Shown in pieces: positions 14,202 to 61,938 of a DNA stretch of 64,000 nucleotides. The stretch is from a virus, in IMG/VR virus record IMGVR_UViG_3300047157_000171, one strand, 5' to 3'. The translations under genes and the position numbers were made by a program. Under the pieces are notes generated by a model that saw only the letters and a list, made by a program, of their open reading frames with translations, was not told where the DNA came from and did not search any database. Each line of letters begins with the position of its first letter. Within the stretch, counting starts at the first letter, position 1.

Positions 14202-15743
14202 ATGAAAATGAAACCATTAGGTAGCGAAAAGCTAACAGGGCAAGATAAGATTCAAAGAATGATTGAAATTGCCAACTATAAGACAACGGACCATTCTGTG
14301 AATGAGTCAACAACTGAGTATACTAAATACGCAGTTGATGGTAATACGTACGCAATCGTTAAAGAAAACGATGGGTATTACGTTAAAACAGGTTTAAACG
14401 AGTCATCATTAGATTATGTTGATGGTATTTTAAACAAAAATAAAAACAGATTCAGTTCTTATTCAGGAGCACTTAAGAAAATCAATTTAATGATTAAACC
14501 GTTAAACGAACAGTTTAATGAAGGTAAAGAAGACCCTGTATTAAATGAGACTAAATATGTTTTAAAGAAACCAGCAGCCCCTTCACCAGAACCTGCAATG
14601 GACGAACCAATGATGGACGAACCAGCAATGGATGAGCCAGCAATGGACGTAGAGGATGAAGATTTAGACTTATCAGGTCTTAATTTAGGTGATGATTCAG
14701 AAGAGGATATCGATATCGAAGATGATTTAGATATGGATTCTGAGATTGGAGAACCTAAAGACGAAGAAGAAGGAAGTGGGTCATTAAAAAAAGTACAAAA
14801 ATTAACAGGTAAGTTAGGACAAGCTTTAAGAGAGATTAAAATCGACTTAGAGTCTTCTGACATTAAATACGTATTAAATTCAATAATTTCAGCAGTAGAC
14901 TTAACAAAGTTAAATTCTGAAGACTTAGAAGATGTTATGTCTAACTTTGAAGAGTTAGATGAATTCGAAATTGATGGTGAAGAGTCATTAGATTCGTCAG
15001 ATGAAGAATCAGGATTAGAAGACTTAGGTTTAGATATGGATGATTTACCAGCTGAAGAGGATGAAATGGAGTTAGAAGATGATTTATCCGAAGTTATTGA
15101 TATAGATGAAGAAGAAAAAGAATTAAACGAGTGGGGAAGTTCAGACCAAACCGCATTTAATCGTTCAGTACACACCGACTTAGGTGAACCTGAAAAAATG
15201 CCATCACCATTCTCATCAGAGTTTGAATCGGCAGTTGAATCAGCGGTTGATTTCTATTGGGATGATTGGTCAGAATATGAAGAAGACAGAAACGGATTAA
15301 TCGAACACGGTAAGAGATGTTACTTAAGAGCATACTTCAAAGAAACTTTTGATATGTTAGTTAAAATGTTCGAACCAGCGGTTGAAGATGAGGATATGGG
15401 TATGGAACCAAATTTAGAAATGGATTTAGATGAAGGGGCGTTTATGGACGGTCTTAAAACATTAGGTTCTAAATTTTTAACATATTATAAAGAAAATCCT
15501 GAAGCTAGAAAGATGGTAAATGATTTAGGTGCTAAAGCGGTTTCAAAGGGAACTAACAAAATTGCAGATAAATTAGACAAATCTGACACTATAGACATTG
15601 ATGGAAAATTTTCTGAAAAGTTAAAGAACGTAAATCCAACGGATAGTGAAATTGATAAGTTAGGTAACTTAATCTTTGGAGACTTAAGTGAGAGTGAAGT
15701 TTCAACAAAAATAGATAACGTTTTAGGTAAATACTTCAAATAA
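14202..15743 (+). CDS. Acidic late protein, probably prohead core or internal head protein
   Basis: 513 aa, very D/E-rich, many L/I/V-x-E sites, late motif at 14149. Confidence 0.65.
   Translation: MKMKPLGSEKLTGQDKIQRMIEIANYKTTDHSVNESTTEYTKYAVDGNTYAIVKENDGYYVKTGLNESSLDYVDGILNKNKNRFSSYSGALKKINLMIKPLNEQFNEGKEDPVLNETKYVLKKPAAPSPEPAMDEPMMDEPAMDEPAMDVEDEDLDLSGLNLGDDSEEDIDIEDDLDMDSEIGEPKDEEEGSGSLKKVQKLTGKLGQALREIKIDLESSDIKYVLNSIISAVDLTKLNSEDLEDVMSNFEELDEFEIDGEESLDSSDEESGLEDLGLDMDDLPAEEDEMELEDDLSEVIDIDEEEKELNEWGSSDQTAFNRSVHTDLGEPEKMPSPFSSEFESAVESAVDFYWDDWSEYEEDRNGLIEHGKRCYLRAYFKETFDMLVKMFEPAVEDEDMGMEPNLEMDLDEGAFMDGLKTLGSKFLTYYKENPEARKMVNDLGAKAVSKGTNKIADKLDKSDTIDIDGKFSEKLKNVNPTDSEIDKLGNLIFGDLSESEVSTKIDNVLGKYFK
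14594..14650 (+). repeat. Imperfect 15-nt tandem repeat (PAMDE-like x4)
   Basis: gcaatggacgaacca-like units encoding PAMDEPMMDEPAMDEPAMD. Confidence 0.7.
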
Positions 15744-15744
15744 T

Positions 15745-16167
15745 ATGAGATTAATTTATGTTAATGAACTTGGACCAAACTACATAGGTAATAATATTTA
15801 TGAATTTATCTTTGGTAGTAATGAGGTAGAACCTTTTGGTGACGGATGGGAATCTGTACCAGCTGCGGGTAACGCAAATCCTCCTGAGTTACAATACATA
15901 AAAAAGGTTGGAATATTAAAAGAATCAAATTTAAAACTACACTTAATACAAAATTCAGACTATTTTTGTGTTTATGACGCAGTTGAAGATGTTGTCGCTT
16001 TAGGGTGGGAAGATGCTGATACTGAGGAGATTGTAGACAAAGGTTTAACTCGTTTAGTGTTTAGGTTTGGTGAATCGTTAGATTCAGTTTCAGACAAACT
16101 ATACGAGAGGGATTTTGTTTTAACCTTTGATAAAGTAATTGATATCGTAGAACAAGATGAAGAATAA
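15745..16167 (+). CDS. Hypothetical protein in the head gene cluster
   Basis: 140 aa, coupled to neighbouring genes. Confidence 0.75.
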   Translation: MRLIYVNELGPNYIGNNIYEFIFGSNEVEPFGDGWESVPAAGNANPPELQYIKKVGILKESNLKLHLIQNSDYFCVYDAVEDVVALGWEDADTEEIVDKGLTRLVFRFGESLDSVSDKLYERDFVLTFDKVIDIVEQDEE

Positions 16168-16993
16168 TAAAAAATATAATGATTTATTAAGGGAAGGGTT
16201 TACAGAAAAGACCCTATCTATTCTTAATGAGAAAAAAATAGCAATCTTACATAGTAGGATTTTCTCTGAAGCGACATATAAGGTTTCTTCAGACAATGTG
16301 GACCAAATTAAAGATAAAGTCGATAGTGATGACACTATTGAAGTTACTGAGGAGGATGAAACACATGAAGAGGAATTAGATGAGGAGTCTGATTTCACTA
16401 AACCTGTATCTGCGGATAAGGGGTGGAAACAAGATACACACTCAAAACAAGTATCAGACAATAGATTAGACAAGACTGACGGAACGTTAAACTCTGTTAA
16501 GTTTGTTGAAAAAGGGAAACAAGCTAAAGAAGTTTCTAAGTCGGGTCATACAGGATTTGCACAACCAAAAGAAAAAGTTAATATTGGAGGTAAAAAGAAA
16601 GGGACTAAGTCCACTTCAGGGTCTTCAATGTCAGAATCAAAAACAACCAAAAAAGAATTGGTAAAATTCATATCTGAAATGGTAGAAAACACTACCTTAG
16701 CATCTCAAACTAAAACAGATAAATTACCCGACTTTATGGATATAGACATTTTTGATGGAAAATTAGGTGACATATTAGGAAACTCACCTGTAGAGACACC
16801 TGTAAAACCAACAACAACACCAGGTATAAAACCAGGTAAACCAATTGTTAAACCAAGACACTCACCAAAACCAAAAGCACAGATGGAAGATGAAAACATC
16901 GAAGAAAATGGAAGAACTTTCGCTGGTGGTGATGAGAAGAAAGGTGGGTTACCTAAACAAAGAGGTTCTAAACCTCAACAAATGAAAAAATAA
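16157..16993 (+). CDS. Hypothetical late protein with acidic and Pro/Lys-rich segments
   Basis: 278 aa, overlaps the previous stop. Confidence 0.7.
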   Translation: MKNNKKYNDLLREGFTEKTLSILNEKKIAILHSRIFSEATYKVSSDNVDQIKDKVDSDDTIEVTEEDETHEEELDEESDFTKPVSADKGWKQDTHSKQVSDNRLDKTDGTLNSVKFVEKGKQAKEVSKSGHTGFAQPKEKVNIGGKKKGTKSTSGSSMSESKTTKKELVKFISEMVENTTLASQTKTDKLPDFMDIDIFDGKLGDILGNSPVETPVKPTTTPGIKPGKPIVKPRHSPKPKAQMEDENIEENGRTFAGGDEKKGGLPKQRGSKPQQMKK

Positions 16994-16996
16994 GGT

Positions 16997-18364
16997 ATGA
17001 AAGATTTTGGATTCATATCGAAAGGTAGTATCTTAGCTGAGATTAAAAAAAACTTAGACGAGATGCCAATGAAATTTGACGGGACTCAAAGACCCGACCC
17101 TTCGATAGAAAAAACGATTGCAGATAAAGACAGTCCATTATCTGACAACCCTGCGTTAGATATTGACGTTAATGATAACGACATACCTGATACCTTTGAA
17201 GAGCTTTTAGCCTCAGAGAGATACAAACAGGTGGTCGATAAGTTTAAAGACGCCACAGGGTTCACTTCAGACGTTCAAACAGGTATGCAAGGTATTATGC
17301 AATTAATGCCGATGATTGGTCAATCATTCCAACAGGTTCAAGCAACAGAAAGTAGGTATAAGTCAGAATTAGAAAGACTTTCTATTAAATTAGTTGCTGA
17401 TGAAGAAGGATTAACTGAATTTGAGCCAGGGATATATGGAATAAAATCACACCCTGAAAAAAGATTTAGATTAGAATCTAAATTGGTTGGTATGGGACAA
17501 GTAAAACAAGATGATTTTACACAAACACCCGAAGAACCAACAGAAGAAGAATTTGAACAAGAAGAACAAGCATTTGAGACTTTCGAAGACTTAAAGTTAG
17601 AAAGAGCTAAAAGACGTTTTATAAACGCAATCATGCAAGGTTCATCTAAAAGAGGTCATTACATGTACGCATTGGTACAAAGAGAGTTAAGAGAACTAAC
17701 AGGTTCTGATAACTTATTCAATCAATACGGTATTATGATGACTGCTAACGATATGTTATATTGGCAAGTACCAGCATCGACTATGTTACCGGGAGGTTCT
17801 CCTGGTGGTGGTGATGCACCTGTTGGTGGTAGAGAAGAAGTGGATATGGAAACTGACCCACCAACGATTAAAGCTACGGCAATTTCGTTTCCAATTTTAT
17901 TACACGAACTGATTAAAGGTATTAAAGAATACTTAGGAGCATATTCTATGGATGATTTATCACCTGACCAAGCAGATAAAGTAGTTGAATTAGAAGATAC
18001 GTTAGATAAGGAGATATGGGATTTAAGATTAGGTCCGGCTATTTGGGATAGATTCAGAGCGTCATATCCACAAGAAGTTTTAATGGATGACGACAAGAAA
18101 TTCCTACAAAACGCCCTTTATGCTGAGTTTGTTGTGATGGACGCCAAAACATTACTATCATTATCTAATGAGGTAATGAGTGGTACTGATAGAGGTAAGT
18201 TAGTTTTACAACAATTAGTTGATGGTATTATTGAAAGAATGAAAGGTGAGGAGTCTGAGGAAGCAATGGAAGAGTTCCGTAACTCTATGGAAGATATTAA
18301 TGATGGTTTTAGTGATGATGATTTAGGTGACTTTTTGAGTGACTTTGGTATCGGATTGAACTAA
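16997..18364 (+). CDS. Hypothetical helical protein upstream of terL
   Basis: 455 aa, followed by a terminator. Confidence 0.75.
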   Translation: MKDFGFISKGSILAEIKKNLDEMPMKFDGTQRPDPSIEKTIADKDSPLSDNPALDIDVNDNDIPDTFEELLASERYKQVVDKFKDATGFTSDVQTGMQGIMQLMPMIGQSFQQVQATESRYKSELERLSIKLVADEEGLTEFEPGIYGIKSHPEKRFRLESKLVGMGQVKQDDFTQTPEEPTEEEFEQEEQAFETFEDLKLERAKRRFINAIMQGSSKRGHYMYALVQRELRELTGSDNLFNQYGIMMTANDMLYWQVPASTMLPGGSPGGGDAPVGGREEVDMETDPPTIKATAISFPILLHELIKGIKEYLGAYSMDDLSPDQADKVVELEDTLDKEIWDLRLGPAIWDRFRASYPQEVLMDDDKKFLQNALYAEFVVMDAKTLLSLSNEVMSGTDRGKLVLQQLVDGIIERMKGEESEEAMEEFRNSMEDINDGFSDDDLGDFLSDFGIGLN

Positions 18365-18388
18365 ACACAAACAATCATATTAAATACT

Positions 18389-18416
18389 ATGGGGGCTTTA
18401 TGTCCCCATTTTTTTT
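18389..18416 (+). terminator. Intrinsic terminator
   Basis: ATGGGGGC-TTTA-TGTCCCCAT plus T tract. Confidence 0.65.
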
Positions 18417-18440
18417 AGATAAAATTATTATTCGCACACT

Positions 18441-19121: not shown

Positions 19122-19124
19122 TAT

Positions 19125-20903
19125 ATGACTAAACAGGAATTAATAACAGAATATACTAAATGTTTAAAGGATACTCCTTACGCATTGAAGACTTATTTAG
19201 AGACGTATGATAATACGCAGTCTAAATACGTCCCCTTTGAATTATTTCCTGACCAAGAACAACTAATAAGGGATTACGACACATATAATGAAAACTTAGC
19301 ACTTAAGTATAGACAGGCGGGTGTTTCTACGGCAACCTCGGCTTGGGTTAGTAAAAAATTACAATTCGCATCCCCTAAACAACCTGAGAAAGTTCTAATT
19401 ATTGCGAACAAACTTGATACCGCCAAAGAAATGGCGAATAAGGTTAGAGGGTTTTTGAATCAATGGCCTGAATGGATTAACGTAGGGTTTTCTAAAGATA
19501 AAGATTCTCAGTCACACTTCCGTTTGAATAATGGTTGTGAGGTTAAGGCGGTCGCAACCTCTATGGATGCACTAAGGGGGTACACACCAACGGTGTTGGT
19601 TTTTGATGAAGCGGCGTATATTGATGCCGGTAACGATTTTTGGGCTGCGTGTATGGCGTCTCTGTCTACGGGGGGTAAAGTAATTGTGGTATCAACACCT
19701 AACGGGTTTGATAAAATTTACTATGAGATATACGCTCAGAGTCAACAAGGATTAAATGATTTTAAGATTACTGAAATGGTGTGGTATAAAGACCCTCGTT
19801 TTACTAAAGATTTAAAGTGGATTAAAACCAAAGATATTATTGACTATATTTTAAACAGAGATAAGTATGACGACAATGAAGTTGTATTAATTGAAAATAA
19901 TCAAGACGAATTCCCTAAATTAATTAAGAAGGGTTATAAACCATATTCTAGTTGGTTTGAACAAATGTCTAAAAAGTTAAAGTATGATAGACGTAAAATT
20001 TCACAGGAGTTAGAGAATAACTTTTTAGGTTCAGGGGATAATGTAATCCCTCCTGACACAATCGAAATGATTAAAGAAAGAATGATAGAAGAACCTAAAG
20101 AAAAATATATGGCGGGCCAAATGTGGGTTTGGAACGAACCAAAAAAAGACCATAGATATATTATGGGGGTAGACGTATCTCGAGGAGATTCTGAAGATTC
20201 ATCGTCTATTTGTATTGTTGATTTTGATACGAGAGAACAGGTCGCTGAGTACTTAGGTAAGATACCGCCAGATGAGTTGGCAGATGTTTGCTTCAAATGG
20301 GGAACTATGTATTCCGCCTTTACCGTTGTGGATATTACCGGTGGTATGGGGGTTGCGACTGTTAGAAAATTACAGGAATTAGGTTATAAAGATTTATATG
20401 TTGATGGTATCAACGCGTTTGATAAATGGTCTTGGAATCCTAAAGCCCACGAAAAAATGCCGGGTTTATCATTTAATAGTAAACGAACACAAATTGTTGC
20501 CGCATTTGAAGAATCGTTGAGACATAATTTTGTTGTTAAATCGACAAGATTACTTAACGAGATGAATACTTTTGTCTATATTAATGGTAAGGCAGACCAT
20601 ATGAAAGGTCATCATGATGATTTAATTATGGCGATGGCGATGTGTGTATATGTTGGCGAGTTCTCATTTTCTTTATTAAAGAAATCTGAGGAATCGACAA
20701 AGGCTTTATTAGAAGGGTGGACAGTCGCTGAAAGACCGAACACACCTCAACCACAACAGAACAGTAATAGAAGACAATTAGGGTCACTGGACCCGTTTAG
20801 AGGTATTGCACCAAATAACCCATCAAACCCAAACCGTGTCGCTGGTAGACAAGACTATTCGGATTTTTCATGGTTAATGGGTGGTAAAAGAAGGAATAAT
20901 TAA
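19125..20903 (+). CDS. terL: Terminase large subunit (T4 gp17-like)
   Basis: LKYRQAGVST variant Walker A, LVFDEAAY Walker B, VVSTPNG motif III, MGVDVSRG and HDDLIMA nuclease motifs. Confidence 0.95.
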   Translation: MTKQELITEYTKCLKDTPYALKTYLETYDNTQSKYVPFELFPDQEQLIRDYDTYNENLALKYRQAGVSTATSAWVSKKLQFASPKQPEKVLIIANKLDTAKEMANKVRGFLNQWPEWINVGFSKDKDSQSHFRLNNGCEVKAVATSMDALRGYTPTVLVFDEAAYIDAGNDFWAACMASLSTGGKVIVVSTPNGFDKIYYEIYAQSQQGLNDFKITEMVWYKDPRFTKDLKWIKTKDIIDYILNRDKYDDNEVVLIENNQDEFPKLIKKGYKPYSSWFEQMSKKLKYDRRKISQELENNFLGSGDNVIPPDTIEMIKERMIEEPKEKYMAGQMWVWNEPKKDHRYIMGVDVSRGDSEDSSSICIVDFDTREQVAEYLGKIPPDELADVCFKWGTMYSAFTVVDITGGMGVATVRKLQELGYKDLYVDGINAFDKWSWNPKAHEKMPGLSFNSKRTQIVAAFEESLRHNFVVKSTRLLNEMNTFVYINGKADHMKGHHDDLIMAMAMCVYVGEFSFSLLKKSEESTKALLEGWTVAERPNTPQPQQNSNRRQLGSLDPFRGIAPNNPSNPNRVAGRQDYSDFSWLMGGKRRNN

Positions 20904-20958: not shown

Positions 20959-22791
20959 ATGGCAGAGCAAAATTATACAATTTATCAAAGATTAGGTAAA
21001 CTATTTGGAGGAACTACAGGAGCAAGTCCTGTTAGTGACCCAGCACCTACATACAATTTTGATAAGAAAGAATTGTTAAGGACTACGGATAGTGCGGAGT
21101 ATGAGCAGGAAAAACTACAAGCACAACAAGCGTTGTTCTTAAATAACCAATGGACTAAAATCGATAGTCAGTTATATCAACAGGCGGTTTTTCATGAACC
21201 AAATAGGATGGCTGCGTATTACGATTATGAGTCTATGGAGTTTACTCCTGAGATATCAGCGGCTTTAGATATATATGCTGAAGAAGCAACGACACTGTCA
21301 GAACAAGGGTATATCTTAAATGTTTATTCAGAGAGTAAAAGAATTAAATCAATATTAGGTGATTTATTTAATAACATATTAGACATTGACACTAACTTAC
21401 CTATGTGGACTAGAAACACATGTAAGTATGGTGATAATTTTCTTTATCTTAAATTAGACCCAAAGAAAGGTATTATTGGTTGTAACCAATTACCGAATAT
21501 GGAAGTTGAAAGAATAGAGAAAGGAATGAATGTTCACGGGTCAAGTGGTAATCAAAGTAATTCTTCAGAATCAAGAGAAACCAAATATGTTTGGAAAGAA
21601 AAAGATATGGAGTTTAATGTGTGGGAAATAGCACACTTTAGATTATTGGGTGACGATAGAAAATTACCTTATGGTACTTCTATGTTAGAAAAAGCAAGAC
21701 GTATTTGGAAACAATTAGTTTTGGCTGAGGATGCGATGTTAATCTATAGAACTTCAAGAGCACCTGAAAGAAGGGTATTCAAAGTATTTGTGGGTAATAT
21801 GGACGATAAAGATGTTGACCAATATGTACAACGAATTGCGAACAAGTTTAAAAGAGATAATGTGGTGGACCCAGCAAACGGGCAAGTGGACCAAAGGTAT
21901 AATCAAATGGCGGTTGACCAAGATTACTTTATCCCTGTACGTGACCCTAACGCACCTAACCCAATCGATACGCTACCAGGAGCACAAAACCTTTCTGAGA
22001 TTGCTGATATCGAATACATACAAAAGAAATTATTAGCGGCACTTCGTATACCTAAAGCGTTTTTAGGGTTTGAAGATGTGGTCGCTGACGGTAAAAACTT
22101 ATCATTACAAGATATACGTTTCGCAAGAACTATTAATCGTATTCAAAAGGCAATGATTCAAGAGTTAAATAAAATTGCCGTAATCCATTTATATATGTTA
22201 GGGATGGAGGATGAACTTAATAACTTTACATTAGGTTTAACAAATCCTTCGACACAGTCTGACTTACTTAAGGTTGAGGCTTGGAAAGAAAAGATATTAC
22301 TTTATAAAGATGCGGTAAGTGACCCAGGAAATGGTATATCTGCAGTATCACACACATGGGCTAAGAAAACAATTTTAGGTATGTCTGATGAAGAGGTTAA
22401 ACTTGATTTACAACAACAACGTTTTGAAAAGGCAATTGCTAGTGAATTGGAAACGACATCAGAAGTGATAAAGAAAACAGGTGTCTTTACAAATATAGAT
22501 GAATTATACGGAGACCCTGATGCTCCTGAACCTACAGGTGATGTGGATGATGGTTCTGATATGGGAGGTATGGGAGACACAGGTATGGATTCCCCAGCAA
22601 CGGAAGAACCTTCTGACGATATACCAATGGATACTGACGGTGGAGAATTAGGTGAGAGTAATACCGAAGAAGATTTATCCATTATATTAGAAACTAAGGA
22701 CTTTGGTGTCCCTAAAAAATTAAATCTAATGAAGGGTCAAGAAGTGACTACTGAGTTAGAAAAAAAGCTTAAAAATATCTTAGGAGAGTAA
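20959..22791 (+). CDS. Portal protein (T4 gp20-like)
   Basis: YESMEFTPEISAALDIYAEE, PYGTSMLEKARRIWKQL, RAPERRVF, DYFIPVR, IRFARTINRIQ. Confidence 0.93.
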   Translation: MAEQNYTIYQRLGKLFGGTTGASPVSDPAPTYNFDKKELLRTTDSAEYEQEKLQAQQALFLNNQWTKIDSQLYQQAVFHEPNRMAAYYDYESMEFTPEISAALDIYAEEATTLSEQGYILNVYSESKRIKSILGDLFNNILDIDTNLPMWTRNTCKYGDNFLYLKLDPKKGIIGCNQLPNMEVERIEKGMNVHGSSGNQSNSSESRETKYVWKEKDMEFNVWEIAHFRLLGDDRKLPYGTSMLEKARRIWKQLVLAEDAMLIYRTSRAPERRVFKVFVGNMDDKDVDQYVQRIANKFKRDNVVDPANGQVDQRYNQMAVDQDYFIPVRDPNAPNPIDTLPGAQNLSEIADIEYIQKKLLAALRIPKAFLGFEDVVADGKNLSLQDIRFARTINRIQKAMIQELNKIAVIHLYMLGMEDELNNFTLGLTNPSTQSDLLKVEAWKEKILLYKDAVSDPGNGISAVSHTWAKKTILGMSDEEVKLDLQQQRFEKAIASELETTSEVIKKTGVFTNIDELYGDPDAPEPTGDVDDGSDMGGMGDTGMDSPATEEPSDDIPMDTDGGELGESNTEEDLSIILETKDFGVPKKLNLMKGQEVTTELEKKLKNILGE

Positions 22792-24420: not shown

Positions 24421-25110
24421 ATGAAAATATTGAACCAAAACGATACGAACACAAGAGGTATCCTTATAGAATATGACGCTGGTCATATAAAACCTTCTGA
24501 AAACAAATCAGTTATCAGAGAGATGAAGGAGATGAATAAAGATAACTTTGTGTTGTATGCGGTACTTCAAAAATACGATACCCCAAACAAAAACGGTAGA
24601 ATTTACGGTGAAAGAATCCTAAAGAGAGAAACCGACAACTATAAAACATTAATAGAACAAGGAAGAGCGTTAGGTGAATTAAATCACCCTGAAACTTCTT
24701 TAGTCGATTTAGAGAGAACATCACACCGTATTACTGAGTGTTGGTGGGACGGTAAAATATTAATGGGTAAAGTTGAATTATTGACATCTGAAGCATTTAG
24801 GTCTACAGGACAGATTACGTGTATGGGTGATATCGCAGCGAATTTATTATTACACGGAGTCACATTAGGTATTTCATCAAGAGGTGTAGGGTCATTAAAA
24901 AAATCAGGAGAATATAATGAAGTACAAGATGACTTCGAAATGGTTTGTTTTGATTTAGTATCATCACCATCAACACCAGGAGCATATCTATTCCAAGACG
25001 AGGGAGATAGAGAGAAATATGCTGAGTCTATAGATAAGAAAGAACCTACTATCACTGATAATAAGACACTAAACTTAATGAACAAATTAAACTCATTCTT
25101 AGGAAAATAA
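24421..25110 (+). CDS. Prohead core protease (T4 gp21-like)
   Basis: NKNGRIYG, ALGELNHPE, SHRIT, LGISSRGVGSL, FDLVSSPSTPGA. Confidence 0.93.
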   Translation: MKILNQNDTNTRGILIEYDAGHIKPSENKSVIREMKEMNKDNFVLYAVLQKYDTPNKNGRIYGERILKRETDNYKTLIEQGRALGELNHPETSLVDLERTSHRITECWWDGKILMGKVELLTSEAFRSTGQITCMGDIAANLLLHGVTLGISSRGVGSLKKSGEYNEVQDDFEMVCFDLVSSPSTPGAYLFQDEGDREKYAESIDKKEPTITDNKTLNLMNKLNSFLGK

Positions 25111-25212: not shown

Positions 25213-26496
25213 ATGGCTAAATCAATCTTAGAAGAAGCATTACTTCAGGTGTCACAACTTGAGGAAGCGGTTAAGAACAACGCAAAAGAAATACTTGCAT
25301 CTACAATGAAGCAAGAAATTGATGAGCTAGTAAGAGAATCTATGGAAGAACCTCAAGAGGACGTAGAAGCATCGTTAGAGATGGAACCTACAGAAGAATT
25401 ATCAGAAGAATCTACAGACGTAGAAGAAACTGAATTAGACGAACAATTTGAGGGGTCTGAAGATGAAGACGAATCTGAAGAATCAGATGACGACGAAATA
25501 GAAGACGAAGACGAAGACAACGATGACGATGAGTCAGAGGAGTTAGAAGACTTCGATTCTAAAGAAGAGTCAGAAGAGGAATCGGAATTCGGAGACATTG
25601 AAATGCCAACGTTAGAATTACCATCACTTGATGATGAGGAGGACGAGGTTATTGATATGACAGGCGCATCTGACGAAGAGATTCTAAAAGTCTTCAAATC
25701 CATGGGAGAAGAAGACGGTATCATCGTATCACAAGAAGAAGACGGAACTGTTCACTTAGAGGACGGAGATGACGAGTACAGAATTGAAGTTAACGAATCT
25801 GAAGACGAAGAGTCTGATGAGGAAATTGCTGAAGAGGAAGTATCGGAATCGACGGAACCTATCGAAGAGTCGTCTGATGAAGTAGTTTATGAAATAGAAT
25901 TAGACGAAGAAGTTACTGAAGAAGTGGCAGAAGAAGAAGTTACTGAAGAAGTAGTGGAAGAAGAAGTTACTGAAGAAGTTACTGAAGGGTCTGAGGAAGA
26001 AGAAGAAACTCCTGAAGCTGATATGGAAGAGGCATCAAGAACTCACGCAGCTGACGCAAGAGTCCCTTCAAATCAAGGTAAAAAATATAAAGCAGGTCGT
26101 GCTGACTTAAGCGAAGATATTAAAACTTTGAAAACGAAGAACGGCGAATTAACTGAAGCCTTAAAGGTATTCAGAGACAAATTAAACGAAGTTGGAGTAT
26201 TCAACGCAAACTTAGCATACGCTACGAGATTGTTTACGGAACACACAACAACGAAATCGGAGAAATTAAACATCTTAAAGAGATTTGACGGTATTGAAAC
26301 GTTAAAAGAATCTAAGTCGTTATACAATTCGATTAAAAATGAATTAACTGCTTCAGATACAAAGTTAACTGAAACAGTTGTAAACAAAATTTCATCATCA
26401 CCAAAATCAGGTTCATCTGAAAAATTAGTGGAGTCTAAAACTTATGAGAATCCACAGATTAGAAGAATCAAAGAGATGATGGGTATTGTTAAATAA
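25213..26496 (+). CDS. Prohead scaffold/core protein (gp22-like)
   Basis: Extremely acidic middle, coiled-coil C-terminus, lies between protease and MCP. Confidence 0.8.
   Translation: MAKSILEEALLQVSQLEEAVKNNAKEILASTMKQEIDELVRESMEEPQEDVEASLEMEPTEELSEESTDVEETELDEQFEGSEDEDESEESDDDEIEDEDEDNDDDESEELEDFDSKEESEEESEFGDIEMPTLELPSLDDEEDEVIDMTGASDEEILKVFKSMGEEDGIIVSQEEDGTVHLEDGDDEYRIEVNESEDEESDEEIAEEEVSESTEPIEESSDEVVYEIELDEEVTEEVAEEEVTEEVVEEEVTEEVTEGSEEEEETPEADMEEASRTHAADARVPSNQGKKYKAGRADLSEDIKTLKTKNGELTEALKVFRDKLNEVGVFNANLAYATRLFTEHTTTKSEKLNILKRFDGIETLKESKSLYNSIKNELTASDTKLTETVVNKISSSPKSGSSEKLVESKTYENPQIRRIKEMMGIVK
25906..25986 (+). repeat. Tandem EEVTEEV repeats in the scaffold gene
   Basis: gaagaagttactgaagaagt units recur with ~27-nt period. 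Confidence 0.7.
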
Positions 26497-26531: not shown

Positions 26532-28271
26532 ATGGGAGCATTATTAGAATCAGGATTAGTTGGTAACATCGGGTTAAAACACCTAAAAGTTATCAAAGAA
26601 GACACAATTAACAAATGGGACAAATTAGGATTTTTAGAAGGTCTTAACGGTCACCAAAAAGAGAACGTTGCACAGTTATTTGAAAACCAAGCATCGTACT
26701 TAATTAACGAGGCAGCTCACACGGATTCAGCAGGTTCATTCGAAACTGTAGTATTTCCAATCGTAAGAAGAGTATTCTCAAAATTATTAGCTAACGATAT
26801 CGTATCGGTACAAGCTATGAACTTACCAATCGGTAAATTATTCTTCTTCGTACCAAAGGTACAAGATAGAAAAAGTGATAATGGTCACTATAAGCCATTC
26901 GGATTTCCAGGAACTGATGAGTACAACTCTTCATCAATGGCAGGATATGAAAACGGTTCAAAGAATTTATATGATAGATTCTACGAAGACGGTTCGACTG
27001 ACTCAGGAATGTTTGATTACTCAAAAGGTGAATTCATTCAAGGTTCTGTAGCAGGTACGGCAATCGTAGTAGCAGACCCTAATGCAAATCCACCAATTGC
27101 AGGTTCAGTAGGAGATTTAACGTCAACTGATGATTTATCTTCAGCAGTATCTAAAGTAAAATTAAACTTTAAAGGTTTCCAAGATGCAGGTGCTGGTAAA
27201 TTACACGGACCAAACGGTCAAGAAGTAGATTCAGAAGAATTCTTAGCTTCATTAACAGTTAAATTAAACAATAAAGAAGTAGACTTTAGAGTAGTAACTC
27301 AGAAGTATGGTCAAGGTATCGTTGGAGGTTTAACTTCAAAGGATTCAGCAGCTACACCAGGTGGTCAATTCCAACAAATATGTGATGCTGATGGTATCAT
27401 ACATTTAGAAGCTGATGTTGAAACATATGACGCAGCAGCAGGATGGTCAGCACAATCAGTAGCTATTACAGATTTCAAAGTAGAGTGGAGACAATACTCT
27501 GATTTAGAATTTGAAGACGCTATCGGTGAGGTTTCTTTTGACTTAGAGTCAGTAACTGTATCTGTAACGGAAAGAAAATTAAGAGCATCTTGGTCACCAG
27601 AATTGGCACAAGACGTTTCTGCTTTCCATAACATCGATGCTGAAGCTGAATTAACGGCTTTATTATCTGAGCAAGTAGCAGCAGAAATCGATAGAGAAAT
27701 CTTAAGAGACTTAAGAAAAGGTGCAGCATGGCAATTAAAGTGGGACTACAATGAGTGGAAATACGGAAACGGTGGAAATTCATTCGCAGGTTACACACAG
27801 AAAGATTGGAACCAAACATTAATCACTAAGATTAACCAAGTTTCAGCACAAATCCACAAATCTACCTTAAGAGGTGGAGCTAACTGGATTGTTGTTTCTT
27901 CTGAAGTATCAGCAGTATTTGATGATTTAGAATACTTCCACGTATCTAACGCATCACCTGAACAAGATTCATACAACATGGGTATTGAAAAGGTAGGAAC
28001 ATTAGCAGGTAGATACCAAGTGTATAGAGACCCTTACTTCCCAGCAGGAAAAATCTTAATGGGACATAAAGGTACATCTTTATTAGACACAGGTTATGTA
28101 TACGCACCATACGTGCCATTACAGTTAACACCTACAATGTATAACCCGTTCAACTTTACTCCGATAAAGGGTATTATGACGAGATACGCTAAGAAAATGG
28201 TTAATAACCGTTTCTATGGTGTGATTTCAGTAGCGGGTCTACAATCATTCGATATCTCTGAATTAAGATAA
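26532..28271 (+). CDS. Major capsid protein (T4 gp23-like)
   Basis: VFPIVRRVF, VQAMNLPIGKLF, RKLRASWSPELAQD, YAPYVPL, IMTRYAKK; predicted maturation site LINE60/A61. Confidence 0.96.
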   Translation: MGALLESGLVGNIGLKHLKVIKEDTINKWDKLGFLEGLNGHQKENVAQLFENQASYLINEAAHTDSAGSFETVVFPIVRRVFSKLLANDIVSVQAMNLPIGKLFFFVPKVQDRKSDNGHYKPFGFPGTDEYNSSSMAGYENGSKNLYDRFYEDGSTDSGMFDYSKGEFIQGSVAGTAIVVADPNANPPIAGSVGDLTSTDDLSSAVSKVKLNFKGFQDAGAGKLHGPNGQEVDSEEFLASLTVKLNNKEVDFRVVTQKYGQGIVGGLTSKDSAATPGGQFQQICDADGIIHLEADVETYDAAAGWSAQSVAITDFKVEWRQYSDLEFEDAIGEVSFDLESVTVSVTERKLRASWSPELAQDVSAFHNIDAEAELTALLSEQVAAEIDREILRDLRKGAAWQLKWDYNEWKYGNGGNSFAGYTQKDWNQTLITKINQVSAQIHKSTLRGGANWIVVSSEVSAVFDDLEYFHVSNASPEQDSYNMGIEKVGTLAGRYQVYRDPYFPAGKILMGHKGTSLLDTGYVYAPYVPLQLTPTMYNPFNFTPIKGIMTRYAKKMVNNRFYGVISVAGLQSFDISELR

Positions 28272-28448: not shown

Positions 28449-28451
28449 GTA

Positions 28452-28718
28452 TTATTGTTTTTCTGATATGGTTATTTTAAGGTCACCAGTACCTTTAAAT
28501 ATTCTATGATATACCATCTTAGGAATTTTATATGTTCGTCCTTCTAATAAGACCTGAGGTAGTTCTTCATCCATTTGTAACATCCATCCATTACTCTGTT
28601 CTATAAAAACCTCACGAGTGTTTAAATCTCTATGCCATACGAGTTCTTCAGAATCCACATCTTCGGTGAATATTCTTTTGAATTTATATTTACTAATATT
28701 TTCCTGTTCGTATACCAT
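28452..28718 (-). CDS. Small cupin-like protein
   Basis: ELVWHRD...IPKMVYHRIFKG. Confidence 0.55.
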   Translation of the reverse strand: MVYEQENISKYKFKRIFTEDVDSEELVWHRDLNTREVFIEQSNGWMLQMDEELPQVLLEGRTYKIPKMVYHRIFKGTGDLKITISEKQ

Positions 28719-44374: not shown

Positions 44375-44812
44375 TTACTTAATTAGTTTATGGTATCTTT
44401 TAATACTTTCAGATAACCTACTTACGTCAACAGAAGGTACTTGACCGTTCTTTTCATGTGACTTTCTATACGCATTACTTTTACCCGGTGTTAAATCAGC
44501 AGCTCTTTGTGCGGATTTTTTCTGTTGTTCAATTTCTTTTCTAGCGTTGTCTAATGTATTATTAACCCACTTATACATAACCTCACCACCGTTAAGATTA
44601 AATGAATCAGAATTTTCTTCTTGGTTAATGTTTTTAAAGTCGTATTTTAATCTCTTAAGTTGTTGATATGTCATAACCCTTTCTTCAACCAATCTACGTA
44701 AACGTTTCATTCCTTCACCTTTAACGTGACTCATTTTCTTTAAAGTCTCGTTTAAGTGTTTAACAATGTTGTTCGGTATTTGAAATTCTTTGTTATGTAA
44801 TTTACGATTCAT
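44375..44812 (-). CDS. Basic hypothetical late protein
   Basis: 145 aa, C-terminal LSESIKRYHKLIK. Confidence 0.7.
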   Translation of the reverse strand: MNRKLHNKEFQIPNNIVKHLNETLKKMSHVKGEGMKRLRRLVEERVMTYQQLKRLKYDFKNINQEENSDSFNLNGGEVMYKWVNNTLDNARKEIEQQKKSAQRAADLTPGKSNAYRKSHEKNGQVPSVDVSRLSESIKRYHKLIK

Positions 44813-51555: not shown

Positions 51556-52800
51556 TTACTTAATCAGTTTAAGTAAGTTTCTAATGATATTAATATCTTC
51601 ATTCAGTTCTGTCACACCTGTTTGGAAAGCGATACCACCATCGCGTACGACATATTTACCATTTTCAGGAAAACACAGATTCGAAAGTGCGACGATATAC
51701 GACCCATCTTTAGGGTGTTTTCCGAAAACAATATAATCGGTTGTATATCTTTTAGCCTGTCCCACACCATGTATGATTGTTGAATTATTATCTAATGTAA
51801 CACCAGTAAAAGGTTTTATTTGTATTGTGTGTGTAATTTCTTCAGGTACGGTTTCATATGTGATAGCGTCTACCCCATCAACCATATCTTCTCCAACACC
51901 TGAACCACCTAATTTTTTAATGTTTAATCCGTTGAATAGAGGGCAATTTGTTAATAACTCAACAGTTTCTTCTTCTGTCTTATCACCTTTAGCGGATGTT
52001 ACACCGATTATTCTCTCAACTATTGATTTATATAGTTCACCGTCTTCTGATAGAATTGATAAGAGATTACTTCTATAAAATTGTTTAAGTTCGTAATATA
52101 TCCCACTTGTTGGTCTCCACAAATCAACACCCATTTCCTCAATAAGTTTAGCCATAACGATGTAGTTGGTGTTTATTCTATTTAAGGTATGATGCCACTC
52201 ACCATCTTTGGTCCACACTCCTTTTTTGTATCTACCGTTGTCGTCTTTCTCTCCGTACCACCTTTTTTTAGGTGAATAAACATACTCTAAGGCTTTATTT
52301 AAAAAGACTCTCCAATCACTGTTATAACCCTTTCCGTAAGTACTCATAATATCACGAGCAATATCAACTGATTTTCTCTCAGGACTTCTTAAAATTGCCG
52401 GTTTGATATAATTGATATAATAAAAACCCTCCTCTAAAAATAATGACTTATACTCACGCCTAATTAAATTTTTAACTTCAACTAATAATAAACCAGCATC
52501 TTTATTTAAATCGGCTGAGGATAAATCTAATAACACAGACATTACTTTGTGGTCAGTATTTATTCTATTTAGTATTTGATGCCATTCACCATTAGAGTCT
52601 AAAACCCCCGTGGGTGTGTCGGCACCACTTGATTCTTGCCATCTATCTAATGGTTCGTATATGTGTTTTAAAACTTTGTTTATAAACACCCTCCATTCTG
52701 ATTTAGGCCCATTACCGTATTGTGTTACTATATCCTTAGATTTTACTAACGATTTCTTAACATCGTATTTTTCCATTATAAGCATGCTTAAATTTTTCAT
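51556..52800 (-). CDS. Tandem-duplicated-domain protein with C-terminal PD-(D/E)xK-like nuclease domain
   Basis: Two copies of DI..YG.G..S.WRVF.NK.L...Y...W...GV...GEWH..LNRINT; C-terminal GEDMVDGVD...TIQIKP. Confidence 0.6.
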   Translation of the reverse strand: MKNLSMLIMEKYDVKKSLVKSKDIVTQYGNGPKSEWRVFINKVLKHIYEPLDRWQESSGADTPTGVLDSNGEWHQILNRINTDHKVMSVLLDLSSADLNKDAGLLLVEVKNLIRREYKSLFLEEGFYYINYIKPAILRSPERKSVDIARDIMSTYGKGYNSDWRVFLNKALEYVYSPKKRWYGEKDDNGRYKKGVWTKDGEWHHTLNRINTNYIVMAKLIEEMGVDLWRPTSGIYYELKQFYRSNLLSILSEDGELYKSIVERIIGVTSAKGDKTEEETVELLTNCPLFNGLNIKKLGGSGVGEDMVDGVDAITYETVPEEITHTIQIKPFTGVTLDNNSTIIHGVGQAKRYTTDYIVFGKHPKDGSYIVALSNLCFPENGKYVVRDGGIAFQTGVTELNEDINIIRNLLKLIK

Positions 52801-52866
52801 ATTATCCTTTTTATATAAATACCGTAAAAATATTAAACCCCATATTTCAAATCATATTAAAATAAG

Positions 52867-52934: not shown

Positions 52935-53699
52935 ATGTCTACAGTTTACTCTTTCATCAGCGAATACAACGGAAACAATTCTTTCTTAAACTCTTTAAAG
53001 ACGGGATACGCAAAGTATGGCCGATTAACACCATCACAGTTGTCAGCGGCGGACAGAGTAATCACAAACATTCGTGAAAAAGTTAAATCAATGGCACCAA
53101 TCGAAGTTCGTAAGAATATCGAGCAAATTATGGATTACAAAGGGGATAATAAGTTCGTATTAGACCTTAAAGCTAAGTACGAAAAATACGGGAAACTAAC
53201 CGAGAAACAAATCGACGCAGGTTTGAAAGTTGTAAACCGTAAGGTTCAGAACAAAATGGCAAAACCTTTACGTTTACCTAAGACTGAAACAATTGTAGTT
53301 GGTCAAAGAACGGGTCGTAGTATCAAAGAAGAGAAGGGATTAGATTTCTTACCAATCCAAATTGATGTATCTCACATAATCGGTGTTTCTCGTAAAGCGG
53401 TTCATTTGAGAGGGAAACTATCTACTGTTGTTGGTTCTGTATGTCGTTGTTGTGGTAGAAAATTAACTGATGAGTTGTCAAAACTTACAGGTATGGGTAG
53501 AACATGTGCCAAAAACACCAATGTACCATACGTTAAAAACACGGACGACCTTGAGCGTTTTATGGAAGACTTAAAGGTTCGTGTAGATGAAATTGGAGAA
53601 TTTGATTTTTGGATTCCTAAATCACAAATTATCGAGTGGAAAGGAATTTACAAAGCAATGGCAAAAACAAGTTTCAGAACTTATGTGGTTACTTCTTAA
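52935..53699 (+). CDS. Zn-finger (DUF6011-like) protein with two N-terminal helical repeats
   Basis: CRCCGRKLTDELSKLTGMGRTCA; repeats YNGNNSFLNSLK..LTPSQ and YKGDNKFVLDLK..LTEKQ. Confidence 0.75.
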   Translation: MSTVYSFISEYNGNNSFLNSLKTGYAKYGRLTPSQLSAADRVITNIREKVKSMAPIEVRKNIEQIMDYKGDNKFVLDLKAKYEKYGKLTEKQIDAGLKVVNRKVQNKMAKPLRLPKTETIVVGQRTGRSIKEEKGLDFLPIQIDVSHIIGVSRKAVHLRGKLSTVVGSVCRCCGRKLTDELSKLTGMGRTCAKNTNVPYVKNTDDLERFMEDLKVRVDEIGEFDFWIPKSQIIEWKGIYKAMAKTSFRTYVVTS

Positions 53700-54297
53700 G
53701 TTTAATGATAATCTCGTCCCCTTTTCTTTTAATACTAAAGGAATCGGGGGATAGGTTTTTGTAGTAGTCTTCATACATTGAAAACTCATCTGTTGTTTTA
53801 CTATTTTTAGATTCTTTTAGAGGTGTAATCACTTTTTCGCTCATCTCCTGAATCTCCACTTCGCTGACATCGTAACTTCTAACATCCCTCTCTATCAACT
53901 CTAATTCGTTCCACTCTGAATCTTCAAGAATTCTTTTTTCTATGTCCTCTTTGGAATAACCTTCAAGGGTACCTTCATAATAATCTGTGCCATACCCACT
54001 CCACATAACTTCAGCTCCTACCTCAAATCGTTTAAGTTTTGGTTCTTTAATGAAATTTTCGTCATTTACGTTTAACGTTGGGGATAATTGAAAGCTAGCA
54101 ATCGCTTTGTTAACTAATCCTTCCTCTTGCCATTGAAACCCAAACTGTCTTGCGTATTTTCTAATCGATGATACTATTTTCTCGGGGTCATCACTAAAAT
54201 TATGATATTTAGATGATAACACTCTAGAAACAAAAACAAGAAATTGGTCATATTTAACCTCTGTTATTTCTTCCGTAATACGTTTTCTTAAATTCAT
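53689..54297 (-). CDS. Hypothetical late protein
   Basis: 202 aa, late motif at 54316. Confidence 0.7.
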   Translation of the reverse strand: MNLRKRITEEITEVKYDQFLVFVSRVLSSKYHNFSDDPEKIVSSIRKYARQFGFQWQEEGLVNKAIASFQLSPTLNVNDENFIKEPKLKRFEVGAEVMWSGYGTDYYEGTLEGYSKEDIEKRILEDSEWNELELIERDVRSYDVSEVEIQEMSEKVITPLKESKNSKTTDEFSMYEDYYKNLSPDSFSIKRKGDEIIIKLKK

Positions 54298-56651: not shown

Positions 56652-56652
56652 T

Positions 56653-57924: not shown

Positions 57925-57935
57925 TAATTACGACA

Positions 57936-58097: not shown

Positions 58098-58104
58098 TAT
58101 CTGT

Positions 58105-58135
58105 AGTATGAAAAAAGTATGAATATAATCATACT
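58105..58135. promoter_or_regulatory. Operator-like AGTATG boxes (two direct, one inverted)
   Basis: AGTATGA at 58105 and 58116, TCATACT at 58129. Confidence 0.55.
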
Positions 58136-58232
58136 CTTAATAAATATTCGGTTTAATAAAAAGTCTTTTATAAAAATACTGAATATTTATAGTAGTAAAG
58201 AAATAAATTACAATTAAAAAAATATTCAAATA

Positions 58233-61041
58233 ATGGCAAATTCTAACAGAGTTTTCGTCTCACCAGGAGTATTCACATCAGAAAAAGACTTGAGTTTTGT
58301 TTCTCAAAGCGTTGGTGTATCTACTTTAGGTTTAGTAGGTGAAACAAAAAAAGGTCCCGCATTTGAACCAGTATTGGTTTCGGGTTATAATGGATTCAGA
58401 ACAATGTTCGGTGGTTCTTCACCTGAAAAGATGGGTGAAACATTAAAATACCCACTTCCGTATTATGCAAAATCATACCTATCTCAATCATCACAATTAT
58501 TTGTGACAAGAGTATTGGGTTATTCAGGTTATGATGCAGGTTCGGCACATTCGATAAAAACTATCGCTGGTGTTAATACAACAACAATAGGACAATCAAA
58601 TTCACTTAAAGCGGATTTTGTTATTGAACTTAATAGTGGTTCTTTAGATATCGCTGGTTTAGGTCAATTAGAAACAGATTATCTTAATACTGAATTTGAA
58701 TCAAATGCAGGTGTTACTACAAGTTTCTTAGATTTCGTAAACTTAAACCTATCAGAAGATAAGGTAATGGTTATGGGTCCATATTATAATACATTCGATT
58801 GGAACGCTATTGGTGTTGATGATACGGATAAAGTTGTTTATCCAATGTCAGACTCTAAATGGGCAGACCAAATAGAATTTACAGGAACAAATGAAAGCGG
58901 ATTAGCGTTTTACGCAAGTAAATTCGACGACGCGGGGGTTATTAAAGTACAGATTGTGGTTATGGAATTAGATGTCGTAAGATTTTCAGAGTTTCATAAT
59001 AAGACAATTGCTATATTACGTTCAAGAGCGGAATATACAGGTGACGATTTAAACTTCAAATTAAACAGTAATATTACGATTACTAGTGATGTGGTAAACG
59101 ACAATGCTTTAGCTGACTTTGATTTATCATTCACATCAGCGGCAGGAGTACACAGTTTTACGTGTAACTTATCACCATCATCTAAGAAATTTATAACTAA
59201 AGTGATTGGTGAATCAGCGTTTGATAAAAACCCTGATGATTATCCTGTTTATGTTGATAAGGTTTATGACAATTATTTAAATTGGTTAATCGCAACAGGA
59301 AAAATTAAAGGATTATATACAGGAACTTTAGATAGTGTAAATGAGGGTGGAGACTTTAAGTCGAAATATACATCATCATATACTCCATATGTTGTTTCTG
59401 AAGTAAGAGGTGGTTTTGTGTCTAACTTATTTAGATTCGCAACGATTTCAGACGGAGACGCATCAGCAAGAGAGGTTAAGATTTCTTTTGTAAACATTTC
59501 AATTGAAAAACAAGAGTTCGATATCATTGTTAGAGATTTCTTCGATACGGATGCAAGTCCAATCGTTTTAGAAAAATTCTCAAGATGTTCTATGAATCCA
59601 GACGTACCAGGTTACGTAGCGAGAAAAGTAGGTACATCTGATGGTGAGTACGAATTAAAATCAAGTTATATTATATTAGAATTATCTGATGACGCACCGA
59701 TAGACGCGGGTACCATCAGGATTTAGAGGTTACGAGGTTAAAGATTATAACTTCGCTTCATCTTCTAACGCAAGTATTAACTATAAAAACGAATACTACA
59801 CTGCAGGACAGGTTATCGGTATAGATAATGATGGTAATGATATTGTGGTAAATTCAGATAAAGTAAGAAAAACATATTTAGGTGTTTCTAACACAGTTGG
59901 TTTTGACCCGTCATTCTTTGAATTTTCAGGTGATTATCAAGGTGTTGAATTACTTAAAGGTTTCCACCTTTCATCACAAGCTAACGGAGTTGAGTTTGTT
60001 AAAACTAATGAAAACTTTGAGTTATCAGAAGGAAACTTTGAAAAGTTAGTTGGTTGTAAATTCACAATAGCACCTGTGGGTGGTTTTGACGGATTTGATA
60101 TCTTTAGAAAAGAAAGAACTAACGGTGACCAATATATAAAAGGTAAATCACCATATGCGAACGCAGGGTTTGACCCTTACGTTGGTAACTCTGATTACTA
60201 TGCGTTCTTAGACGGTATTAGAACATACGCTAACCCTGAAGCAGTAGATATTAACTTATTCTCAACACCAGGTCTTAACTTCTTTGACAATTCATCTTTA
60301 GTTGGTGAAGCAATCGACATGATTGAAGAAGAAAGAGCTGATTCATTATACGTAATTGATTCACCAAACAGGTCATCAGTAGATGAGATTGTAGGTGACA
60401 TTGAAGACATAGGTTTTGATTCTAACTACTCAGCAACATATTGGCCTTGGATTCAGGTGAGAGACACTGAAAATTCAGTTCAGGTATACGTGGCACCAAC
60501 AGGTGAGGTATTAAAGAACATCGCGTTAACAGACAACGTGGCATATCCATGGTTCGCATCAGCGGGTTACACAAGAGGTTTAGTAAATGCAATCAAAGCG
60601 AAAAAGAAATTAACATTAGATGAAAGAGATGAATTATATGTTAATAGAATTAACCCAATAGCAACATTCTCAGACGTAGGTACGATTATCTTCGGTAACA
60701 AAACATTACAAGTTAGAGAATCGGCATTAGACAGAATCAACGTAAGAAGATTATTACTACAAGCAAGAAAACTTATTTCAAACGTGGCGGTAAGATTATT
60801 ATTCGAACAGAATGATGAAGTTGTAAGAAACGAATTCTTAAGTTTAGTTAATCCAATTTTAGAAAACATAAAAAGAGAAAGAGGTTTAACAGAATTTAAA
60901 GTTGTATTGTCATCTTCACCAGAAGATATGGATAGAAATCAGTTATCGGGTAAGATATACATTAAACCAACAAGAGCTCTTGAATTCATTGATATTGAAT
61001 TCTTAGTAACACCAACAGGAGCATCTTTTGAAAATATTTAA
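58233..61041 (+). CDS. Tail sheath protein (gp18-like), ~935 aa once the extra G at 59708-59710 is removed
   Basis: FVSPGVFTSEKD, LVGETKKGPAFEP; corrected junction DAVPSGFRGY; C-terminal WFASAGYTRG, GNKTL, RINVRRLL, IKPTRALEFI. Confidence 0.92.
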
Positions 61042-61051
61042 AAAATTATAG

Positions 61052-61073
61052 AGGGGAGGGTTTCCTCCCCTTT
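61052..61073 (+). terminator. Hairpin after the sheath gene
   Basis: AGGGGAGG-GTTT-CCTCCCCT with a short T tract. Confidence 0.6.
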
Positions 61074-61086
61074 GTATGTATAATAT

Positions 61087-61938
61087 ATGAAACAAACATT
61101 AATAGAATCAGAAATTAAAAGACTTATGGAAATCATGAGTGTTGAGGTGTCTGAAGGTTTTAACGAAGAGGGTTTACCTGATTTTAAGTATTACGCATTT
61201 GATTGGGATGATAACCTAATGTATATGCCAACTGAAATTATGGTGAAAAGTTTTGGAGACCAAGAAATAGGTATGGGTACTGCAGATTTTGCTGAGTACA
61301 GAGGACAGATAGGAAAAGAAGATTTTGACTATAAAGGTCATACTATAGTTGGTTTTGCTGAAAATCCTTTTAGAAATTTCGGTGTAGATGGAAATGACCA
61401 ATTTGTTAAAGACGCTATGATTGCTAAAACAGGTCCTTCATGGAATGACTTTATAGAATGTATTAACGGAGGTTCAATATTTTCTATTATCACGGCAAGA
61501 GGACATAACCCTGAGACATTAAGAGAGGGTGTGGAAGCTATTGTTAAAGACGGTAAGGGTGGTTTATCATTCGAATCGTGCGTGGAGTCACTTAAGAAAT
61601 ATAAAGGTGTTATAGACGGGGATGGTGAAGAATTATTCCAAGAATATTTAGACCTATGTAGATTTCATCCTGTTTCACACGGAGCGGGTAGTGCTGCTAA
61701 CCCTGAAGAAGAAAAAATTAAGGCATTAGAATTATTTATTAAACACGTTAATTCTTTATCTGAAGAATTGGCGGTTACGATGGAGTTAGAAAATGACATC
61801 AAAAATAATTTTGTCCCGATGATTGGGTTTTCTGATGATGATAAAGCTAATGTCGACAATGTAAAAAAATACTTAGACGACAAAGGAGAAGAAAATGTCA
61901 ACGTGTATTACACTAAGACTGATAAAACAAAGATGTAG
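61087..61938 (+). CDS. HAD-superfamily phosphatase-like protein
   Basis: YYAFDWDDNL (motif I), IITARGH (II), EKIKAL (III), IGFSDDD (IV). Confidence 0.75.
   Translation: MKQTLIESEIKRLMEIMSVEVSEGFNEEGLPDFKYYAFDWDDNLMYMPTEIMVKSFGDQEIGMGTADFAEYRGQIGKEDFDYKGHTIVGFAENPFRNFGVDGNDQFVKDAMIAKTGPSWNDFIECINGGSIFSIITARGHNPETLREGVEAIVKDGKGGLSFESCVESLKKYKGVIDGDGEELFQEYLDLCRFHPVSHGAGSAANPEEEKIKALELFIKHVNSLSEELAVTMELENDIKNNFVPMIGFSDDDKANVDNVKKYLDDKGEENVNVYYTKTDKTKM

Follow-up and report, generated by a model that had tools for sequence, protein, structure and literature searches.

The capsid targeting sequence (CTS) of phage T4 was reportedly described by Mullaney and Black in 1996. The T4 internal proteins IPI, IPII and IPIII carry N-terminal propeptides of 10-19 residues for core entry, which are removed by gp21 (PMC9026906, PMC9958956), and Alt as well as gp21 are processed at the C-terminus, too (PMC9026906). 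Just one packaging signal has been defined, the CTS of 10 residues in two or three internal proteins of T4, and a recent review terms the selection of proteins for T4-type heads 'mysterious' (PMC9958956). Here we analysed a stretch of 64,000 nucleotides (nt) of viral DNA, the IMG/VR record IMGVR_UViG_3300047157_000171 (the window), which is part of an uncultured T4-like jumbo phage with relatives whose genomes measure about 300 kb. A sequence-only reading had proposed that the C-terminal helix of its gp22-like scaffold protein recurs at the termini of unrelated proteins as a portable address tag, which docks cargo on the prohead and is then cut off by the prohead protease. The concept of a portable tag at either terminus, next to a gp21-type site, found partial support in a clade-wide module on unrelated late proteins, but not in the helices that had been cited. 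This 22-residue module, which looks cleavable, is not scaffold-like; each genome fuses it to about 20 late proteins that are otherwise unrelated, probably as a capsid-loading tag.

The module was discovered by comparing the N-terminal 20-mers all against all within each relative, with no prior assumption. Near-identical leaders turned up on proteins with non-homologous bodies (blastp E > 0.3). The consensus MKKIIRLTESDLxRIVKRVIxE spans 22 residues and ends in a gp21-type site. A profile of 17 leaders run against 1.84 billion representatives yielded 139 proteins at E<=1e-3, 122 of which carry the module at the start. In 28 aligned leader proteins M1, K3, T8, E9, L12 and E22 are invariant, among them the glutamates of both [L/I]-x-E positions of the module (Glu9 and Glu22), while the bodies otherwise do not align. 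A degenerate DNA pattern that covers 13 module residues matched at least 120 stretches in IMG/VR. Among the matches listed, 76 of 79 begin 5-9 residues after a Met, and Glu22 stands two residues past V-I in 76 of 79 even though it lies outside the pattern; two of those listed are the C-terminus of small open reading frames (ORFs). Synonymous codons vary freely, including six-fold switches, thus the conserved entity is the peptide. Four long proteins (P0122, P0124, P0132 and P0166) bear Sec-type signal peptides and match the leader profile internally 5-6 times (I-T-E-S-Q-I in a repeat); they are probably unrelated bacterial repeat proteins and false positives of the profile.

Although the module is usually N-terminal, C-terminal, internal and tandem copies also occur. 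Five to seven of 13 second copies in C-terminal or internal position have an [LIM]-x-E a few residues upstream. Each of five complete genomes of 257-321 kb holds 16-21 copies, often in arrays of small ORFs. Tandem arrays comprise up to eight small leader ORFs (contig G014, 201443-204208; G016, 1429-3547 and 19833-20440; G015, 109452-111152). A tblastn search of GenBank phages returned just two chance matches at E=8, a literature search for the motif strings of the module gave nothing relevant, and PHROGs, Pfam and NCBIfam hold no model for it.

The leader genes might be a single fast-evolving paralogous family of which the N-terminus alone is still recognizable, in which case the module would not be portable. 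Many of them are indeed small and arranged in tandem, and bodies without detectable similarity could reflect rapid divergence. However, the bodies range from 73 to 750 aa and include distinct Pfam domains, i.e. a TseH-like NlpC/P60 hydrolase, PG_binding_1 and EF-hand proteins, and a divergent family would not readily account for C-terminal, internal and tandem copies. We therefore consider common descent of the leader genes improbable and treat the module as portable.

The expression of leader genes was judged by a late promoter-like motif. TATTTATA is present 23 times in the window versus 13.3 expected, and none of 100 shuffles reached 23. It precedes the genes for portal, protease, scaffold, sheath, tube and terminase as well as the genes 14202 and 51556 and the operon 44815-44375. 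Of 72 leader genes in IMG/VR, 49 (68%) have TATTTAT in the 100 nt upstream, in comparison with 302 of 938 other ORFs (32%; p 4e-9), and the late 8-mer at leader genes mostly starts 18-24 nt before the ATG. By this measure leader genes have a late-type association, which suggests that they are expressed with the head genes. Thus the enrichment of the late motif that had been expected for tagged proteins was obtained with the 22-residue module, but not with the helices of the sequence-only reading.

Module and T4-type head genes occur together, and among the genomes tested the module was confined to those with an S77 protease. All 10 large carrier contigs tested encode S77 or a gp23-like capsid protein; S77 is present in five of five carrier genomes, as is a gp23-like match, which is weak in one. 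Some copies of the module sit inside head modules beside the protease gene. In the window a gp21-type (S77) protease and a core and shell of gp22/gp23 type are all encoded. We picture the module as a short strand followed by a helix that would bind to the prohead core during assembly, like the T4 CTS, take its cargo into the capsid and be clipped at the terminal I-x-E afterwards.

The main rival to a capsid tag is a module that is real, yet serves as an interaction handle outside the capsid, be it for the DnaK or Clp-like ATPase of the phage itself, for a membrane or lysis apparatus that would take up the wall hydrolases, or as an oligomerization helix. The phage encodes Hsp70/DnaK (11175-13034) and a Clp-type AAA+ ATPase (8859-10889), both beside the head module; several module bodies act on peptidoglycan and so could belong to lysis; and packaging of module proteins into the capsid is itself deduced from sequence. 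Such a handle would not explain, on the other hand, why neither [L/I]-x-E position tolerates a change of its Glu, why the site follows the N-terminal copies and precedes 5-7 of the 13 others, or why late motifs lie at a fixed distance. Furthermore, copies next to the protease gene within head modules and arrays of small variable genes that recall the T4 internal-protein loci point to the head. We regard a handle of this kind as rather unlikely and favor the capsid-loading tag.

The contigs G002 and G012 are near-identical to the window and were taken as the same phage beyond it. G002 carries the module at 84229-85407, with a TseH-like body (hidden Markov model (HMM) E 1e-5), and at 52989-53792. 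About 13 kb past the right end of the window, G012 16089-17042 is a 318-aa frame in which the module starts from an internal Met, residue 137, with L-K-E before it; this may be read-through from one gene into the next or else a polyprotein tagged internally. The window itself has at most diverged or marginal copies, i.e. in an M23 peptidase (domain assigned by PHROG), in the HAD-like phosphatase 61087-61938 and in ORF 16157. The HAD helix aligns in register with the module, but the leader HMM was not significant on 50 HAD homologues; thus we do not claim it as a module member. An hhalign comparison of the alignments A4 and A2 was disregarded as circular, since the HAD row is already part of A4. 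The positional counterpart of ORF 16157 (G009 111882-112727) bears a clear leader, and pairwise alignment joins the two stretches without reaching significance. A small ORF of 47-49 aa lies between the sheath and HAD genes in G010 (112692-112865, L150/L151) and G007 (131892-132041, L141). It ends module-like and closely matches the HAD leader of the window, which is without a separate ORF; this suggests a fusion in the lineage of the window.

Several points weigh against the capsid-tag interpretation. No leader match in the window beats shuffles (maximum 7.6 versus a shuffle mean of 8.7). The best leader-HMM match there, the N-terminus of the M23 protein, has an E of just 0.85, and the HAD protein is far worse. 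All known members of the module are uncultured, and the protease specificity is carried over from T4 gp21. Finally, the capsid propeptide is not unique, but one of the top 7% of the most conserved 40-residue capsid windows.

The scaffold tail itself is a genuine conserved terminal helix that, by its sequence, is specific to the scaffold. We found 44 orthologous loci in IMG/VR, and no match to the scaffold in Pfam or PHROGs. The last 20 residues and the preceding [L/I]-x-E are nearly unchanged in 40 IMG/VR orthologues (42-96% identity) and in three large relatives, whereas the acidic middle could not be aligned among those orthologues. Three residues of the tail never vary in an alignment of 18 sequences that takes in Flavobacterium phage immuto and Microcystis phage Mel-JY01: the P1 Glu, one Arg and the last Lys. 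At the shell, capsid residues 1-40 are 95% invariant across 4 genomes as compared to 59% for the mature part, and the first 60 residues contain four conserved [LIV]xE sites. The co-conservation of scaffold tail and capsid propeptide is only suggestive of binding to the capsid protein. The last ~15 residues of the S77 protease form a conserved C-terminal amphipathic helix of its own in all four genomes, as in T4 gp21, which may be a C-terminal targeting propeptide or an autocleaved propeptide.

The peptides quoted in the sequence-only reading were all located as described: at the scaffold C-terminus (26443-26493), the N-terminus of 61087-61938, the C-termini of 51556-52800 and 44375-44812 (both on the minus strand), and residues 15-24 of 14202-15743. 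One scaffold-like helix motif across these proteins failed every null model, a weak signal of the 44375 family being the sole exception. When window proteins were scanned for the scaffold tail by ungapped BLOSUM scoring, the HAD N-terminus was the top non-self match with a score of 23, while unrelated internal segments scored 20-21; 4 of the 24 top matches were terminal, equal to the 16.6% expected. A position-specific scoring matrix (PSSM) of 14 columns was built from 14 natural scaffold tails. The top non-scaffold score among the window proteins was 6.1 versus a shuffled-proteome maximum of 6.9 ± 2.4, and the quoted peptides ranked 23, 25, 157 and 370, every one with a negative score. With three large relatives the PSSM picked out, as best extra match, the charged C-terminus of a DnaB-like helicase encoded beside ribonucleotide reductase, which was rejected as a false positive and gauges the noise level of the PSSM. 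The tail of this replicative helicase outscores every cited protein. In a profile-profile scan of 38 orthologue families the 44375 tail took rank 3 among 11,830 windows, with a score that internal windows of both the portal and the Clp-like ATPase equalled; 20% of the top 25 were terminal versus 16% expected.

Short basic leaders ending in [ILV]xE, which had been noted at the start of many late ORFs, occur at chance frequency in the window. Twenty of 61 proteins (33%) have [ILV]xE in the first 15 residues in comparison with 26% of internal 15-mers (p 0.14), and terminase and SNF2 helicase are among the 20. Across the 38 orthologue families conserved [LIV]xE at termini amounted to 0.64 per 100 aa versus 0.58 internally, i.e. 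there was no enrichment. Taken together, neither the cited helices nor the leaders rose above shuffles or internal controls. The lesson from the window is that amphipathic helices matched by eye in an I/K/E-rich proteome are no evidence, and the scaffold tail alone stands.

The four cited proteins were then considered with their families; sequence searches of the PDB with them gave nothing useful. The ESM Atlas yielded no usable match, and the 14202, 44375 and 51556 proteins as well as the scaffold are without a model in PHROGs, Pfam and NCBIfam. The protein 61087-61938 has no Pfam match and is a predicted HAD protein like the 3'-phosphatase of T4 Pnkp. Its core, residues 31-279, resembles 5uj0_B (Z 10.5, root mean square deviation 3.5, 132 residues) and 1ltq_A (Z 9.9); D39, D41, T136, D250 and D251 are invariant, and the DxD nucleophile motif and a Rossmann-like fold are present. 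AlphaFold2 (AF2) places a helix at residues 2-22, with residues 14-30 below a predicted local distance difference test score of 50. Nearly all of 462 HAD relatives in IMG/VR have some N-terminal helix ending in [LV]-x-E, and in 50 homologues Glu23 never varies. A comparison of the scaffold tail with the HAD family gave P 0.35 with the best match elsewhere, so no relation was seen. Between the sheath and HAD genes there is a G+C-rich hairpin followed by T's at 61050-61075, and a TATAAT-like stretch directly precedes the HAD ATG; the HAD gene may hence not share a transcript with the sheath gene.

The cited helix of 51556 is absent in the G007 and G010 orthologues, which end differently. That of 14202 belongs to an N-terminal domain (about 260 aa) which orthologues retain in its entirety, with no sign of a separable tag. 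For a single scaffold-like helix that tags the HAD, 51556, 44375 and 14202 proteins, it can be said that the peptides exist, each adjoining x-x-E, and that all four genes are within or near late-motif operons. Yet, the failure in all null models, the loss of one helix in orthologues and the burial of another in a conserved domain, the unrelated HAD family and the higher score of a replicative helicase render such a common tag very improbable.

The C-terminal helix of the 44375 family is the only item on that list that may be right. The family comprises 1988 unnamed proteins of about 150 aa. In 112 of 119 members read, [LIV]xE is found within the last 30 residues, mostly 13 from the end, and an amphipathic helix comes next. 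AF2 predicts a confident helical core (residues 1-107), which a disordered stretch (111-129) links to a separate end helix (130-144). No match to the fold was detected (Foldseek best E 0.5; VIA best Z 5.2). The family has invariant Y-Q-Q..K-R.K and L-N-G-G motifs and occurs on contigs as long as 430 kb, of which the large ones have the size of a phage.

Might scaffold tail and 44375-family helix then constitute one C-terminal docking class, which binds to the same prohead site and is released by cleavage just upstream? The best local hhalign match between the scaffold and 44375 profiles is tail to tail with P 0.011, and the 44375 tail ranks third in the profile-profile scan. In addition, a conserved [LIV]xE stands 10-20 residues before the C-terminus in both families, the 44375 helix is predicted to sit on a disordered linker, and the gene belongs to an operon behind a late motif. 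However, the hhalign probability is just 3.7%, the 44375 tail scores level with internal portal and Clp-like windows, and 44375 tails are far more variable than the near-invariant scaffold tail. Moreover, the neighbours of the gene serve transcription and nucleotide metabolism, and a tethered peptide could equally bind a clamp, a polymerase or another partner. A shared docking class of this extent thus appears doubtful.

Altogether we lean, with a little more than even confidence, towards an explanation in three parts: a tail specific to the scaffold, ordinary helices of individual families, and the separate portable 22-residue tag. The scaffold tail would dock the scaffold core to the shell interior, most likely at the near-invariant capsid propeptide, and the S77 protease would cut it off at the conserved [L/I]-x-E. 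The other four helices would be ordinary amphipathic helices of their own families; in the 44375 family alone the tethered C-terminal helix might use the docking site of the scaffold tail. A wider proposal, to which we give tentative credence somewhat short of even, is that the module is a general, position-independent capsid-loading tag of the clade of ~300-kb T4-like phages, removed by S77 from about 20 late proteins including wall hydrolases, and that scaffold and 44375 tails form a second, C-terminal docking class.

The closest cultured relatives of the phage are distant with capsid identities of 30-43% (Microcystis phage Mel-JY01, Rhodothermus RM378 and Flavobacterium phage immuto). Uncultured relatives with capsid proteins 65-71% identical have complete genomes of 257-321 kb, and a 92-kb contig 98% identical to the window was rated 28% complete. 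The S77 assignment of the protease has a Pfam score of 81.1 bits, above the curated cut-off of 27. The tail sheath is a single ORF of about 1060 aa in three relatives, but split in the window (58233-59726 and 59845-61041). Because the downstream frame is open already from ~59700, one frameshift near 59700-59726 parts the halves; the shift is real or programmed, or else stems from faulty assembly. Coordinates are compiled in Table 1.

Table 1. Positions of head genes, terminal peptides, leader-like stretches and the late motif in the window.
Feature	Position	Strand	Basis or remark
Portal gene, gp20 type	20959-22791		Portal_T4
Prohead protease, Peptidase_S77 (gp21-like)	24421-25110	+	Pfam PF03420, E 1e-22; phrog_207
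gp22-like scaffold gene, 427 aa, acidic	25213-26496	+	position between S77 protease and gp23 genes
Scaffold C-terminal 20-residue tail, right after L-V-E site (residues 405-407)	26434-26493	+	conservation
gp23-family capsid protein gene	26532-28271	+	family match
Capsid propeptide, residues 1-60, end L-I-N-E	26532-26711	+	gp23 family
Leader-like N-terminus (from internal Met, residue 7) of M23 peptidase protein 28718-30346	30263-30328	-	in-register alignment
Leader-like residues 22-38 of 16157-16993, S-E end before A-T	16220-16270	+	in-register alignment
N-terminal helix of HAD-like protein 61087-61938, residues 1-23, V-S-E end before G-F	61087-61155	+	AF2, homologues
C-terminal L-S-E and 10-residue helix of 145-aa protein 44375-44812	44378-44416	-	family conservation, AF2
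C-terminal helix of 51556-52800	51559-51606	-	only in window and 100% identical contig
Residues 15-24 of 14202-15743	14244-14273	+	inside conserved domain
TATTTATA late-promoter-like motif	52814-52821	-	others include 14149, 20944, 24391, 25164, 45561, 58184, 62088

If the module is a capsid-loading tag, injected cargo could be listed from sequence across a clade of uncultured jumbo phages; anti-defence proteins and wall hydrolases are probably part of such cargo. The module would be a defined peptide for binding and structural studies of the core-shell interface and possibly a handle to load foreign proteins into large capsids. As a signal it would be much better conserved than the CTS, present on about 20 proteins per genome and apparently working at either end.

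Among known systems, the scaffolding protein of phage P22 has a C-terminal coat-binding helix-turn-helix, and prohead proteases such as that of HK97 have C-terminal targeting. Similar to these and to T4 gp21 and Alt, scaffold and protease of the phage described here end in conserved helices, and the scaffold tail appears to be detachable at the protease site. Unlike this resemblance in layout, there is no sequence relation to P22 or HK97, and T4 gp22, which also has a short terminal helix after cleavage sites, ends in a sequence unrelated to the scaffold tail. The cargo-loading peptides of encapsulins are short, portable, located at either terminus and bring diverse cargo into an HK97-fold shell, but are not removed by a protease; to these the module bears an analogy only, as the sequences are unrelated. 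The prohead protease also processes many head proteins of the giant phages SPN3US and phiKZ, where some of the propeptides are short, with 20-24 residues; these phages differ by the cleavage motif A/S/G-x-E, and no common portable leader has been reported (PMC10052503).

The closest parallel is the T4 CTS. Like the CTS, the module is a short N-terminal peptide on otherwise unrelated proteins with a gp21-type site at its end, and the phage described here has homologues of gp20, gp21, gp22 and gp23 of T4; the putative cargo genes are variable and clustered, too. In contrast to the CTS propeptides of 10-19 residues, the module has 22, shares no sequence similarity with them and is far more conserved; a genome has 16-21 genes with the module where T4 has about three with a CTS, and the module is also found in C-terminal, internal and tandem positions. 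In every feature visible at the sequence level, the module fits the T4 scheme.

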